DNA of 64,000 nucleotides from Escherichia coli (GTDB lineage Bacteria; Pseudomonadota; Gammaproteobacteria; Enterobacterales; Enterobacteriaceae), in NCBI RefSeq assembly GCF_048403405.1, contig NZ_CP183129.1; one strand, given 5' to 3'. Made by a program: the position numbers and the translations under genes. The notes beneath the pieces were generated by a model. The model was not told the origin of the DNA, searched no databases, and saw only the letters and a list, made by a program, of their open reading frames with translations. Each line of letters begins with the position of its first letter. The stretch's first letter is position 1. This document shows positions 39,871-54,800 of the stretch, one piece after another.

Positions 39871-41343
39871 ATGGTACCTGTGGTCGCGCTTGTCGGGCGC
39901 CCTAACGTAGGAAAATCCACGTTATTTAACCGTCTAACTCGCACCCGAGATGCGCTGGTTGCGGATTTCCCGGGTCTGACTCGTGACCGTAAGTACGGTC
40001 GTGCAGAAATTGAAGGCCGTGAGTTTATCTGCATTGATACCGGCGGGATTGATGGCACAGAAGACGGTGTAGAAACTCGCATGGCGGAACAGTCGCTGCT
40101 GGCGATTGAAGAAGCGGACGTCGTACTGTTTATGGTGGATGCGCGCGCGGGCCTGATGCCGGCGGATGAAGCGATTGCTAAACATCTGCGCTCCCGTGAA
40201 AAACCGACCTTCCTGGTGGCAAACAAAACTGACGGTCTGGATCCCGATCAGGCAGTGGTTGATTTCTACTCGCTTGGTTTAGGGGAAATCTACCCGATCG
40301 CCGCGTCTCACGGTCGTGGCGTATTAAGTCTGCTGGAGCACGTGCTGCTGCCGTGGATGGAAGATCTCGCACCGCAAGAAGAAGTCGACGAAGACGCCGA
40401 ATACTGGGCGCAATTTGAAGCAGAAGAAAACGGCGAAGAAGAAGAGGAAGATGACTTCGACCCGCAAAGTCTGCCAATCAAACTGGCGATTGTGGGGCGT
40501 CCGAACGTAGGTAAGTCTACACTCACTAACCGTATTCTTGGTGAAGAGCGCGTTGTTGTTTACGACATGCCTGGCACGACGCGTGACAGCATCTACATTC
40601 CAATGGAGCGCGATGGACGTGAGTATGTACTCATTGACACCGCTGGCGTACGTAAACGCGGCAAAATCACCGATGCTGTAGAGAAATTCTCGGTAATCAA
40701 AACGTTGCAGGCCATTGAAGATGCCAACGTGGTGATGTTGGTGATTGACGCCCGCGAAGGTATTTCCGATCAGGATCTCTCGCTGCTGGGCTTTATTCTC
40801 AATAGTGGGCGCTCACTTGTCATTGTGGTGAATAAGTGGGATGGCCTGAGCCAGGATGTGAAAGAGCAGGTGAAAGAAACGCTGGACTTCCGTCTGGGCT
40901 TTATCGATTTTGCTCGTGTGCACTTTATCTCTGCCTTGCACGGCAGTGGTGTTGGTAACTTGTTTGAATCAGTGCGTGAAGCGTATGACAGCTCCACCCG
41001 TCGTGTGGGGACCTCTATGCTGACGCGCATCATGACGATGGCTGTTGAAGATCACCAACCGCCGCTGGTACGCGGTCGTCGTGTGAAGCTGAAATATGCC
41101 CACGCCGGTGGTTATAACCCGCCGATTGTGGTGATTCATGGTAACCAGGTGAAAGACCTGCCTGATTCCTACAAGCGTTACCTGATGAACTACTTCCGCA
41201 AATCGCTGGACGTAATGGGATCGCCGATTCGTATTCAGTTCAAAGAAGGGGAAAACCCGTATGCGAACAAGCGTAATACCCTGACGCCAACCCAGATGCG
41301 CAAGCGTAAGCGCCTGATGAAGCATATCAAGAAAAGTAAGTAA
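39871..41343 (+). CDS. der: Ribosome-associated GTPase Der/EngA (tandem GTPase domains)
   Basis: 490 aa from ATG 39871; two G1 motifs GRPNVGKST. Confidence 0.95.
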
Positions 41344-41405
41344 TCACTTATCTGGTTTCCCTTTCCACACGGAGAGGGAAACCGAATAACACGCGAGGAG
41401 TATTT

Positions 41406-41621
41406 ATGGCACTCAACTGTCCAACCTGCAAAACCCCTCTCGAACGCAATGGCGAGACTGCCCACTGTGCAACTTGCGACAAAGACTTTACCGTCCAGGC
41501 ACTTTGCCCTGAGTGTCATCAGCCGTTACAAGTGTTAAAAGCTTGTGGTGCTGTGGACTATTTTTGCCAACATGGGCACGGTTTAATATCTAAAAAACGC
41601 GTTGAATTTGTTATTGCTTAA
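41406..41621 (+). CDS. yfgJ: Zinc-ribbon protein YfgJ
   Basis: 71 aa with CPTC...CATC...CPEC...CQHGH. Confidence 0.88.
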   Translation: MALNCPTCKTPLERNGETAHCATCDKDFTVQALCPECHQPLQVLKACGAVDYFCQHGHGLISKKRVEFVIA

Positions 41622-41830
41622 TATCATGTGAATATATTGTTTTATCATTTATATTTAATATGTGAATGGTAAAACAATCTGTTATTAGTGGAATAACTAA
41701 TGTAATTGAGTGAAATCACTAATTTAAATAATTAAGAATATATTTATTCTTTATGACATGCCTTTCTGAATAATCAGGGATACAATATTAAAGCTTATTT
41801 TTGACTGTATCATTGTCACAGGGAAAGTGC
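41622..41830 (+). promoter_or_regulatory. AT-rich upstream region of sinH-like gene (candidate promoter / nucleoid-protein silencing region)
   Basis: About 200 bp with very high A+T, at the island's left junction. Confidence 0.45.
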
Positions 41831-44008
41831 ATGCTGCGATGGAAACGCTGTATTATTCTAACATTTATCTCTGGTGCTGCTTTCGCGGCACCAGAGATAA
41901 ATGTTAAGCAAAACGAATCGTTACCTGATTTAGGTAGCCAGGCAGCACAGCAGGATGAACAAACCAACAAGGGTAAATCGCTGAAAGAGCGCGGAGCCGA
42001 TTACGTCATCAACTCCGCCACGCAAGGGTTTGAAAACTTGACCCCTGAGGCGCTGGAATCTCAGGCCAGAAGCTATCTGCAAAGTCAAATCACCTCAACC
42101 GCACAATCTTATATTGAAGACACACTCTCTCCCTACGGTAAGGTCCGTTCGAACCTCTCCATTGGCCAGGGCGGCGATCTGGATGGCAGTTCCATCGATT
42201 ATTTTGTTCCCTGGTACGATAATCAAACCACTGTTTATTTCAGTCAATTTTCTGCGCAGCGAAAAGAAGATCGTACAATCGGGAATATTGGTCTTGGGGT
42301 AAGACATAATTTTAATGAATGGTTATTGGGTGGAAATATATTTTATGATTATGATTTTACCCGAGGACATCGCCGTTTAGGTTTAGGCGGCGAAGCGTGG
42401 ACTGATTATTTAAAATTCTCTGGCAACTATTATCATCCGCTTTCTGACTGGAAAGACTCTGAAGATTTCGACTTTTATGAAGAACGCCCTGCGCGCGGCT
42501 GGGATATTCGTGCCGAAGCCTGGTTACCTTCTTATCCGCAACTGGGAGGCAAAGTTGTCTTCGAGCAATATTACGGCGATGAAGTCGCCCTTTTTGGTAC
42601 GGATAATTTGGAGAAAGATCCCTACGCGGTAACACTTGGACTGAATTATCAACCGGTGCCATTACTAACCGTTGGGGCGGACTATAAAGCGGGGACCGGA
42701 GATAACAGCGATGTCAGCATTAATGCCACTCTTAATTATCAGTTCGGCGTTCCGCTAAAAGATCAATTGGATAGCGATAAAGTGAAAGCGGCTCACTCGT
42801 TGATGGGCAGTCGTCATGATTTTGTTGAGCGTAATAACTTTATTGTTCTGGAATACAAAGAAAAAGATCCGCTTGATGTCACCCTGTGGTTAAAAGCGGA
42901 TGCCACCAACGAGCACCCTGAGTGCGTCATTAAGGACACTCCCGAAGCGGCCGTCGGGCTGGAAAAATGTAAATGGACCATTAACGCGCTTATCAACCAC
43001 CACTACAAAATTGTCGCTGCGTCATGGCAGGCGAAAAACAATGCTGCCCGCACGCTGGTTATGCCGGTTATCAAAGAGAATACCCTGACAGAGGGTAACA
43101 ATAACCACTGGAACCTGGTGCTGCCCGCCTGGCAGTACAGCTCTGACAAAGCCGAACAAGAAAAACTCAATACCTGGCGAGTACGTCTGGCACTGGAAGA
43201 TGAAAAGGGTAACCGACAGAACTCTGGCGTGGTGGAAATCACCGTTCAGCAGGACCGTAAAATAGAGTTGATTGTTAATAACATCGCGAACGTGCCGGAA
43301 GAGAACAACCACAGCCACGAAGCCAGCGCTCAGGCAGATGGCGTTGATGGTGTGGTGATGGATCTCGATGTAACCGACAGCTTTGGCGATAACACCGACC
43401 GCAATGGCGATGCGCTGCCGGAAGATAACCTCACGCCGCAGCTTTACGACGCGCAGGACAAACGAGTGACGTTAACCAACAAGCCTTGCTCGACCGACAA
43501 CCCCTGCGTTTTTATCGCTAAACAAGATAAAGAAAAGGGCACTGTCACCCTCTCCAGTACCTTACCCGGCACCTATCGCTGGAAAGCAAAAGCTGCGCCC
43601 TACGACGACAGTAACTATGTGGATGTCACTTTCCTCGGGGCAGAAATTGGTGGGCTAAATGCATTTATCTATCGTGTGGGGGCAGCTAAACCCAGCAACC
43701 TGATAGGTAAAGATAAAGAACCGCTGCCGCTCAACAACACTTATCGATTTGTTTTGTGGCGTGACAGCAATAAAGACGGTGTCTTCCAGCAGGTCGAAAA
43801 ACTGACTGACGAAGAGATGGCGCAGTACGACTACAAGTGGGAATTTACCGGCAAGAGCATCAATGGTGAAGTGGGTGCACAGGCGAACACTTCCAATGAG
43901 GACATTGTGATTCCGGCCACTAACCGCGAAGCAGCGCAAACCTATGGCGCACAAGCGGGAGATGGCTTGCAGGGATACGGTTTACGCGTGCTGTATACCA
44001 AAAAATAA
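41831..44008 (+). CDS. sinH: Inverse autotransporter (intimin/invasin family) adhesin, SinH-like
   Basis: Signal peptide MLRWKRCIILTFISGAAFA; inverse-autotransporter beta-barrel-like segment (GNIGLGVRHNF...NIFYDYDFTRGHRRLGLGGEAW); C-terminal passenger; start 41831 preferred over ORF-track 41801. Confidence 0.8.
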   Translation: MLRWKRCIILTFISGAAFAAPEINVKQNESLPDLGSQAAQQDEQTNKGKSLKERGADYVINSATQGFENLTPEALESQARSYLQSQITSTAQSYIEDTLSPYGKVRSNLSIGQGGDLDGSSIDYFVPWYDNQTTVYFSQFSAQRKEDRTIGNIGLGVRHNFNEWLLGGNIFYDYDFTRGHRRLGLGGEAWTDYLKFSGNYYHPLSDWKDSEDFDFYEERPARGWDIRAEAWLPSYPQLGGKVVFEQYYGDEVALFGTDNLEKDPYAVTLGLNYQPVPLLTVGADYKAGTGDNSDVSINATLNYQFGVPLKDQLDSDKVKAAHSLMGSRHDFVERNNFIVLEYKEKDPLDVTLWLKADATNEHPECVIKDTPEAAVGLEKCKWTINALINHHYKIVAASWQAKNNAARTLVMPVIKENTLTEGNNNHWNLVLPAWQYSSDKAEQEKLNTWRVRLALEDEKGNRQNSGVVEITVQQDRKIELIVNNIANVPEENNHSHEASAQADGVDGVVMDLDVTDSFGDNTDRNGDALPEDNLTPQLYDAQDKRVTLTNKPCSTDNPCVFIAKQDKEKGTVTLSSTLPGTYRWKAKAAPYDDSNYVDVTFLGAEIGGLNAFIYRVGAAKPSNLIGKDKEPLPLNNTYRFVLWRDSNKDGVFQQVEKLTDEEMAQYDYKWEFTGKSINGEVGAQANTSNEDIVIPATNREAAQTYGAQAGDGLQGYGLRVLYTKK

Positions 44009-53203: not shown

Positions 53204-53262
53204 CCAGCATGGCGCATCTGGCGTGGCCTGGGAGCCAGTGCCGGATGCGATGCTGGCGCATC

Positions 53263-54800
<1,538 letters not shown>

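Follow-up and report, generated by a model that had tools for sequence, protein, structure and literature searches.

The AT-rich yfgJ–sinH intergenic region of Escherichia coli as a probable H-NS/StpA-silenced sinH promoter

The 209-bp gap that separates yfgJ from sinH, a gene for an intimin-like adhesin, in a 64,000-nucleotide stretch of Escherichia coli DNA (contig NZ_CP183129.1; the whole stretch is referred to below as the window) appears to be a composite region, in which the 3′ end of yfgJ is followed by the promoter and control DNA of sinH, coated by H-NS and StpA and silent until this block is relieved. We put the probability of this reading at roughly three in four. An earlier note, made from the letters alone, had described the gap as a strongly AT-rich leader with repeated TGTGAAT-type motifs, which would separate a core gene from the first gene of a horizontally acquired island and carry a promoter silenced by nucleoid-associated proteins, so that the island would be expressed conditionally. 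The reading as an H-NS/StpA-silenced promoter is supported, mostly by published work on near-identical alleles, and the finding as stated is already known, since both the LeuO response and the H-NS occupancy have been published. It is a routine example of the well-known regulation by H-NS silencing and counter-silencing. What is added here is modest and concerns the anatomy of the promoter, a conserved direct-repeat box and a link of TGTGAAT to LeuO half-sites or to a hairpin behind yfgJ. The coordinates of all features are collected in Table 1.

The evidence for occupancy comes from uropathogenic E. coli CFT073, whose gap aligns with that of the window with few differences and whose enclosing 551 bp are 97.6% identical. 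Hustmyer et al. determined H-NS and StpA binding in this strain, grown in rich defined medium, by chromatin immunoprecipitation sequencing (ChIP-seq; PMC9765446, Data set S1 sheet 1E). Averaged per gene, H-NS occupancy of sinH (2178 nt) was 0.116 in the wild type, 0.063 in the hns mutant and 0.033 in the hns stpA mutant, with a StpA value of 0.100, while that of c3032 (216 nt), which adjoins sinH, was 0.407, 0.207 and 0.090, respectively, with a StpA value of 0.367 (PMC9765446). On the same scale, hlyC reached 0.88, hlyA 0.46 and papX 0.34, and the next entries in the list of H-NS-bound genes are yfgH and yphF, sinI, the large adhesin gene, xseA and der being unlisted (PMC9765446). The length of c3032 and its location beside sinH mark it as the yfgJ homologue. 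A strong signal on a gene of only 216 nt, together with a diluted one on the 2.2-kb sinH and unlisted neighbours, is the pattern to be expected if H-NS occupies a short patch with the gap at its centre. The earlier proposal that nucleoid-associated proteins bind this region, for which H-NS ChIP-seq had been named as a check, is thus borne out in CFT073, where both genes are bound and the signal is lower in the hns and hns stpA mutants. The main text of the H-NS paper of Lucchini (2006) does not mention the locus.

Silence of the promoter and its conditional expression are documented for E. coli SMS-3-5, whose gap aligns well with that of the window and whose identical twin, CE-O153H30, shares 87.7% identity with the window across the 551 bp. 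The E. coli protein IatB is the orthologue of SinH, and Goh et al. found a chromosomal iatB promoter–lacZ fusion to be silent in SMS-3-5, with no protein in LB or M9 medium at 28, 37 or 42 °C (PMC6714894). In their Tn5 screen, all 12 up-mutants recovered from about 30,000 insertions activate leuO, and overexpression of LeuO raised the iatB/sinH transcript about 15-fold, yet the protein remained undetectable (PMC6714894). LeuO is a known antagonist of H-NS (PMC6698644). Upregulation of sinH during human urinary tract infection and its co-transcription with sinI are cited in PMC9937491 and PMC12525524. Accordingly, the expectation of conditional expression agrees with a promoter that is off in laboratory media and responds to LeuO, and with the upregulation cited for infection.

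The strong AT-richness is confirmed. The gap contains 24.4% G+C as compared with 52.3% for the window, and it is the sole trough below 30% G+C when the 64 kb are scanned in 209-bp windows; the 0.1% of these windows that are equally low all overlap it. The other intergenic gaps (n = 17, in the annotated part of the window) range from 34 to 70% G+C. The assumption that this composition marks horizontally acquired DNA fared less well. It is true that K-12 lacks the segment and that 1699 of 5426 complete E. coli genomes (about 31%) carry it, leaving about 69% without it. Against acquisition stands the composition of the island itself, 50.9% G+C overall, with 48% for sinH, 53% for sinI and 52% for the large adhesin gene. 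The annotation shows no mobility genes, integrase or tRNA gene at the island, and a search for an attachment site or target duplication revealed no direct or inverted repeats common to its two ends. Moreover, the yfgJ–sinH junction is common to E. coli, E. albertii, E. whittamii and other Escherichia lineages, Salmonella, Citrobacter, Pseudocitrobacter and Superficieibacter (loci L004–L016, L033 and L034). Most orthologous gaps in Escherichia, Citrobacter, Pseudocitrobacter and Superficieibacter are 200–218 bp long with 22–30% G+C, two of them having measured about 247 bp since the sinH match began inside the gene; that of C. freundii has 205 bp and 24% G+C. In Salmonella enterica the gap is 345 bp long, and a G+C-rich insert resembling a repetitive extragenic palindromic (REP) element after yfgJ (L033, 1156–1275) precedes the AT-rich part. 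Taken together, the ordinary G+C content of the island, the lack of mobility genes and shared repeats and the presence of the junction in five genera argue that the AT-richness is not a mark of foreign DNA. From these comparisons the AT-rich gap appears to be a maintained regulatory property of the junction rather than a compositional leftover. As a side observation, the same junction in five genera and the host-like G+C content raise the possibility that the whole sinH ‘island’ is ancestral with repeated loss rather than recently gained.

Within the gap, the promoter of sinH was located by cross-genus conservation. The gaps were aligned as 13 sequences from four genera and as nine Escherichia gaps, to which those of Salmonella and C. 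freundii were then added; background column identity was 46%. The predicted −10 element, TACAAT in the window, reads TATAAT in Salmonella, C. freundii, Citrobacter MGH106 and sequence type 131 (ST131), and its last base lies 43–44 nt before the ATG in both the window and Salmonella. With a predicted 5′ untranslated region (5′UTR) of only about 38 nt, the gap would be mostly upstream DNA, and the term ‘leader’ used in the earlier note therefore does not fit. No −35 hexamer is conserved in the alignment 16–18 bp upstream of the −10, and a scan for two-hexamer promoters was empty. Lacking a usable −35, the promoter would be expected to depend on an activator. Downstream, the ribosome-binding region is also well preserved, CAGGGA being the most over-represented hexamer in 14 orthologous gaps (9 of 14 as compared with 0.27 expected). 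Although a TTG at 41801 opens a longer sinH frame, the conserved Shine–Dalgarno region, the typical signal peptide and the call of the Prokaryotic Genome Annotation Pipeline (PGAP) favour the ATG at 41831 as the start. In ST131 strain 4993 (L027, 573–777) the TATAAT −10 is accompanied by a 3-bp deletion in the predicted 5′UTR and a more stable hairpin after yfgJ, and the LeuO-like palindrome described below is missing; E. coli lineages may thus differ in sinH regulation. A sigma-54 site, TGGTACGGATCTTGCCAT, is listed as genome coordinates for STM2517 (sinH) of Salmonella LT2 (PMC3844500); nothing similar occurs in the gap.

The columns of a box centred near −54 are the most conserved of the 13-sequence alignment. 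Salmonella and C. freundii carry the family consensus TTTAGG-N6-TTTAGG without a mismatch; each locus has a single copy of the box, as has the 64-kb window as a whole. Its distance from the −10 is 33–34 bp in Escherichia, Salmonella, Citrobacter and Pseudocitrobacter, and 42–45 bp in Superficieibacter and one Escherichia lineage. It is probably an activator site. On the minus strand, the box reads TATTCTTA in the window and AATTCCTA in other genera and agrees with the wwTTCykA half-site of RcsB type given in PMC3950696, for which we estimate that about 0.4 chance matches are to be expected in this gap. The full RcsAB box (TaAGaatatTCctA) is matched at 11 of 14 positions here and at 8 of 14 in the family consensus. 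Readings of the box as a PhoP, PmrA or Lrp site or as a GAD box were rejected by eye, owing to misfits in spacing or half-sites.

As to the TGTGAAT repeats, two copies are indeed present, each within a copy of ATGTGAAT (at 41626 and 41660) that has no further counterpart in the window. A repeat of this kind is nevertheless within chance expectation, since exact direct repeats of at least 8 bp arise in 70%, and of at least 9 bp in 30%, of dinucleotide-preserving shuffles of the gap. Taken as a fixed motif, TGTGAAT yields P ~0.005, but it was picked once the sequence had been seen. In none of CFT073, ST131 and SMS-3-5 is either copy conserved. What holds across the family is the shorter core: TGAAT occurs 19 times in 14 orthologous gaps where 8.9 ± 2.9 are expected, an enrichment of about 2-fold, and [TG][GA]AATAT is enriched 3-fold, both in lineages that are not independent. 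A reading of TGTGA as a CRP half-site was discarded by eye, the right half-sites misfitting TGTGA-N6-TCACA.

This core recalls the binding site of LeuO. The core site of LeuO at Pcas, nearly identical at leuO, is a 19-bp palindrome in which a 5-bp spacer separates two 7-bp halves (Fragel et al., PMC6698644). Its sequence was derived by scanning both K-12 intergenic regions, which gave a single solution with the consensus ATATTCA-N5-TGAATAT (ATATTCA-TACTG-TGAATAT at Pcas and ATATTGA-TTTGG-TGAATAT at leuO). Apart from the palindrome of which the second TGTGAAT copy forms the right arm, the window contains a second match of 11/14 at 41770–41788. Closer matches are found at the homologous position in other lineages. 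Citrobacter MGH106 carries a 14/14 LeuO-type palindrome (0 of 3000 shuffles; P <0.0003), and 12/14 palindromes are present in E. coli E69, Escherichia E1V33, a Pseudocitrobacter metagenome-assembled genome and Superficieibacter 1612 (P ~0.01–0.02).

The same stretch of the gap, just after the yfgJ stop codon, can also fold as RNA. The hairpin has a fold energy of −22.7 kcal/mol (z = −5.0) and is kept in CFT073, SMS-3-5 and ST131 (z = −6.9, with a compensatory change from A-U to G-C), while non-homologous hairpins occupy the same place in E69, E1V33, Citrobacter MGH106 and Pseudocitrobacter; none was seen there in E. albertii or Superficieibacter 1612. In Citrobacter MGH106 the perfect LeuO site forms the upper part of a 16-bp stem whose base is G+C-rich. 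A scan for intrinsic terminators returned 0 matches: the stem in the window consists of A-U and G-U pairs only and is followed by CUGUUAUUAGU, without a U-run. Since the size and sequence of the loop vary while the pairing is kept, an RNA hairpin at a 3′ end fits better than a fixed site for a protein dimer; both readings of this distal third of the gap may nonetheless hold. With moderate confidence, we regard it as the 3′ hairpin of the der–yfgJ transcript.

Curvature prediction, another check that had been named for silencing, places a peak of 17.6 degrees per turn at 41718, that is, inside the gap. This is the 98.75th percentile of the window and about half the value of a phased A-tract control; the wedge parameters are internally consistent. 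The peak belongs to a moderately curved, TpA-rich stretch at about 41690–41730. A palindrome lies at the peak, and 41714–41726 resembles, with one mismatch, the IHF consensus (WATCAR-N4-TTR); the pattern TC.C-N4-TTA of this IHF-like site is kept across Escherichia. Similarly, 41721–41730 is the sole match, with 2 mismatches, to the high-affinity motif of H-NS, which is weak evidence. The highest predicted curvature of the window, 28.7 degrees per helical turn, occurs elsewhere, at about 23018 in the timP–sseA region.

A further structure lies inside the coding sequence of sinH, in the codons of the signal peptide. The first 100 nt of sinH fold with −42.4 kcal/mol (z = −7.6), and covariation among 14 sequences supports the stem, with 85% of cells paired as compared with 36–49% in slid controls; 9 pairs are changed on both sides, a result matched by 0 of 500 shuffles. 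E. albertii retains the hairpin through two compensatory pairs, and in Citrobacter and Pseudocitrobacter it is shorter; it is absent from Salmonella sinH. This hairpin might limit translation or affect the fate of the mRNA and could relate to the LeuO-induced transcript that gave no detectable protein.

These elements can be combined into the following model. The first third of the gap would form the 3′ end of the der–yfgJ transcript, and the rest would be the sinH promoter, with its −10, no usable −35, a start at about 41793 and the box upstream. H-NS and StpA would nucleate on the TpA-rich, moderately curved DNA at 41650–41800 and, in line with the CFT073 data, coat the patch in growing cells, extending over yfgJ on one side and the beginning of sinH on the other. 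They would thereby occlude a promoter that would be weak anyway for want of a −35. Expression would need both relief of this block and recruitment of RNA polymerase. The genetic evidence suggests that LeuO brings about the relief, either directly, at TGAATAT-type sites, or indirectly, and recruitment would be the task of an activator bound at the box.

A number of observations weigh against this model. The ChIP-seq values are per-gene averages from another strain, the SMS-3-5 transposon screen yielded no hns insertions (PMC6714894), and we found no report in the literature of sinH derepression on removal of hns. The start near 41793 is a prediction, the simple two-hexamer scan finds no site, and the box is degenerate in the clade of the window, both GG pairs being partly lost. 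The LeuO-like matches of the window, with 3 mismatches, are no better than chance (P = 0.17), and one of them overlaps the −10, an odd position for an activator. ST131 has lost its LeuO-like match altogether, and in SMS-3-5, the very strain in which LeuO induction was observed, the site where the hairpin lies has as many as 4 mismatches. Finally, the LeuO-like palindromes double as RNA hairpins whose loop size varies among genera.

Some of these points would be accommodated if sinH were off mainly for want of a −35 and of a specific activator at the box, H-NS binding being incidental and LeuO acting indirectly, for example via another regulator. The empty promoter scan, the outstanding conservation of the box and its fixed distance of 33–34 bp from the −10 in most genera, the weak LeuO-like sites in the window and SMS-3-5, the screen without hns insertions and the LeuO-induced transcript without detectable protein are all in keeping with this possibility. 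Nevertheless, we consider it rather unlikely, given the strong H-NS/StpA occupancy of the yfgJ homologue (0.41 as compared with 0.34 for papX) and the known antagonism between LeuO and H-NS (PMC6698644). Besides, limitation by an activator and silencing do not exclude one another, as most H-NS-silenced promoters also need an activator. It is distinctly less probable that the region is mainly a 3′ untranslated region or terminator of der–yfgJ, in which the palindromes, the TGTGAAT copies included, would be RNA 3′-end hairpins with no role in sinH expression. A hairpin does follow the yfgJ stop in most lineages, with differing sequences and compensatory changes, and Salmonella has its REP-like G+C-rich element at the same place. 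However, this would account only for about 41631–41683, where the hairpins lack G+C-rich stems or U-runs and the terminator scan was empty, while the downstream 150 bp carry a conserved box, −10 and Shine–Dalgarno region that belong to sinH.

Two further explanations are very improbable. One of them is a long structured RNA leader, such as a riboswitch, an attenuator or a small RNA, which would control sinH after the start of transcription. The hairpins behind yfgJ and in the signal-peptide codons would suit such a leader, but the invariant −10 leaves a distance of only about 38 nt between the predicted start and the ATG, and neither a conserved small open reading frame (ORF) nor a significant Rfam family was found. 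Indeed, an Rfam scan of 40800–42600 at permissive thresholds returned only eukaryotic miRNA models, with 19–26 bits as compared with gathering thresholds of 67–95 and a best E-value of 0.025. The other, to which we give the least credence, sees in the gap a scar left by the integration of a mobile island, or the attachment site of such an island, with AT-richness left over from foreign DNA. The absence of the segment from K-12 and most complete E. coli genomes would be explained, as would its start exactly at the yfgJ stop. This explanation conflicts with the host-like composition of the island, with the missing integrase, tRNA gene and terminal repeats, and with the same junction, mostly of the same gap length and composition, in five genera; in addition, the divergent flanks of the island (yfgJ and the 3′ part of xseA), described below, point to homologous recombination or an old polymorphism.

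An H-NS/StpA-silenced sinH promoter would resemble other promoters governed by LeuO and H-NS, namely Pcas, leuO, bgl and yjjQ-bglJ, in being AT-rich, bound by H-NS/StpA, silent in the laboratory and switched on by overproduction of LeuO (PMC6698644, PMC3950696, PMC6714894). The LeuO-core-like palindromes in the sinH gaps of several genera would be a further likeness to Pcas and leuO. Unlike these four promoters, that of sinH has an additional conserved direct-repeat box, and the LeuO-like sites in the window are non-significant 3-mismatch sites. Genes for adhesins of the same intimin/invasin-type family that are released from H-NS by a dedicated antagonist include Yersinia inv, where H-NS/YmoA is opposed by RovA, and tir-cesT-eae of the LEE5 operon, where H-NS is opposed by Ler. 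In contrast to inv and LEE5, the counter-silencer of sinH would be LeuO or another protein, and not RovA or Ler. The fdeC gene of enterohaemorrhagic E. coli, which encodes a further adhesin of this family, is likewise held off by H-NS, together with temperature, as cited in PMC6714894. A difference from other inverse-autotransporter adhesin promoters is that the body of sinH is not AT-rich (48% G+C), so that the H-NS patch is short. The sinH promoter of the Salmonella CS54 island is orthologous; it also has yfgJ upstream, and TTTAGG-AATATA-TTTAGG is located 33 bp before a TATAAT that ends 43 nt before the ATG. It differs in its longer gap with the REP-like insert, in the lack of the signal-peptide hairpin and in having a consensus box and −10 where those of the window are degenerate.

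SinH contributes to fitness during urinary tract infection and is a candidate vaccine antigen against extraintestinal pathogenic E. coli (PMC9937491). When and where the antigen is produced is of importance, and the gene would normally be held off by H-NS/StpA, needing LeuO and probably another activator. In practical terms, the present analysis provides a map for mutagenesis, comprising the −10, the conserved box, the LeuO-like sites and the two hairpins. Caution is warranted because of differences among lineages: in ST131 the −10 is a consensus TATAAT, yet the LeuO-like site has been lost. One may speculate, though we hold it doubtful, that TTTAGG-N6-TTTAGG is an operator common to the five genera for an activator that would couple sinH to a host signal, perhaps a tandem-binding response regulator or a heteromer of RcsB with a partner, and that the signal-peptide hairpin adds a post-transcriptional brake in Escherichia. 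If so, this activator would convey the host signal that switches on the vaccine-candidate adhesin, and the brake could explain the missing protein.

Table 1. Features of the yfgJ–sinH junction, in coordinates of the window
Feature	Position	Strand	Basis
yfgJ, double zinc-ribbon protein, 71 aa; island-linked divergent allele	41406–41621	+	ORF, PGAP
AT-rich yfgJ–sinH intergenic region, 209 bp; probable sinH promoter/regulatory DNA and yfgJ 3′ end	41622–41830		Composition, conservation
TGTGAAT copy 1, overlapping an exact LeuO-type half-site TGAATAT (41629–41635)	41627–41633	+	Sequence scan
AU-rich hairpin/palindrome just after the yfgJ stop; 19-bp stem, ~41636–41654 with 41660–41678	41631–41683	+	Inverted repeat I2, RNA fold
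LeuO-core-like 7-5-7 palindrome ATATTTA-ATATG-TGAATGG, 11/14 match	41651–41669		Scan with ATATTCA-N5-TGAATAT
TGTGAAT copy 2, in the 3′ arm of the hairpin; right arm of the LeuO-like palindrome	41661–41667	+	Sequence scan
Palindrome AGTGA-aa-TCACT (41709–41720) and overlapping IHF-like site (41714–41726), at the curvature peak	41709–41726		Read from sequence
Conserved upstream box TTAAGAATATATTTAT, degenerate copy of TTTAGG-N6-TTTAGG, centred near −54; candidate activator site	41732–41747	+	Alignment
Predicted sigma-70 −10, TACAAT	41781–41786	+	TAnAAT invariant in cross-genus alignment
Predicted sinH transcription start, 5′UTR ~38 nt	41792–41794	+	Inferred from −10 position
Shine–Dalgarno region AGGGAAAG, six nt before the ATG	41820–41827	+	Conservation
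sinH (= iatB), intimin-like inverse autotransporter; first gene of the sinH–sinI–large adhesin island	41831–44008	+	PGAP; Pfam PF11924 IAT_beta in homologues
22-bp hairpin, 4-nt loop, codons ~10–25 of sinH	41859–41906	+	Inverted repeat I1, 95% complementary

The locus belongs to E. coli, the 551 bp around the gap being 100% identical to strain TUM14771, and gene calls combine the PGAP annotation of a 100%-identical strain with ORFs. The annotated order is bamB, der, yfgJ, sinH, a SinI-family gene, an 8-kb adhesin gene, xseA on the opposite strand, guaB and guaA. The gap is the exact interval between the yfgJ stop codon (TAA, 41619–41621) and the sinH ATG called by PGAP. In K-12, yfgJ and xseA are convergent genes with a 4-bp overlap, and the homology of the window to K-12 breaks off at TAAT (41619–41622), so that the whole gap belongs to the inserted segment. 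The separation of yfgJ from the first island gene is accordingly confirmed, with the qualification that the yfgJ allele is itself island-linked and divergent: it shares 142 of 216 nt (66%) and 47 of 71 aa with K-12 yfgJ, whereas der just upstream is 96–100% identical. This divergence spans 41344–41621. On the other side, the 3′ part of xseA (53263–53700) is 52–89% identical to K-12, identity recovering gradually. Since yfgJ and the 3′ part of xseA are both divergent, the replaceable unit is larger than the ‘island’. Two deeply divergent haplotypes of the island flanks are thus present side by side in E. coli, which suggests homologous recombination or an old polymorphism.

Several minor observations concern the gap and its surroundings. 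With regard to phase variation, no GATC sites occur in 41400–42000. An invertible promoter element was also dismissed: within 300 bp, inverted repeats are confined to the hairpins, and none flanks the promoter. The small ORFs in the gap, all of them AT-rich minus-strand frames of 21–24 aa, were judged to be noise, and none is conserved. Between der and yfgJ, where identity to K-12 collapses, there is a 13-bp hairpin (41354–41383; GGTTTCCCTTTCC / GGAGAGGGAAACC, 92% complementary), and the gap between the large adhesin gene and xseA (53204–53262) consists of 59 bp with 69.5% G+C and a REP-type palindromic look, similar to the G+C-rich insert behind yfgJ in Salmonella. In strain E06 (L002, 4190–5384), ISKpn26, an insertion sequence of the IS5 family, replaces the AT-rich gap together with the 3′ end of yfgJ and the 5′ end of sinH and thus represents a natural promoter knockout.

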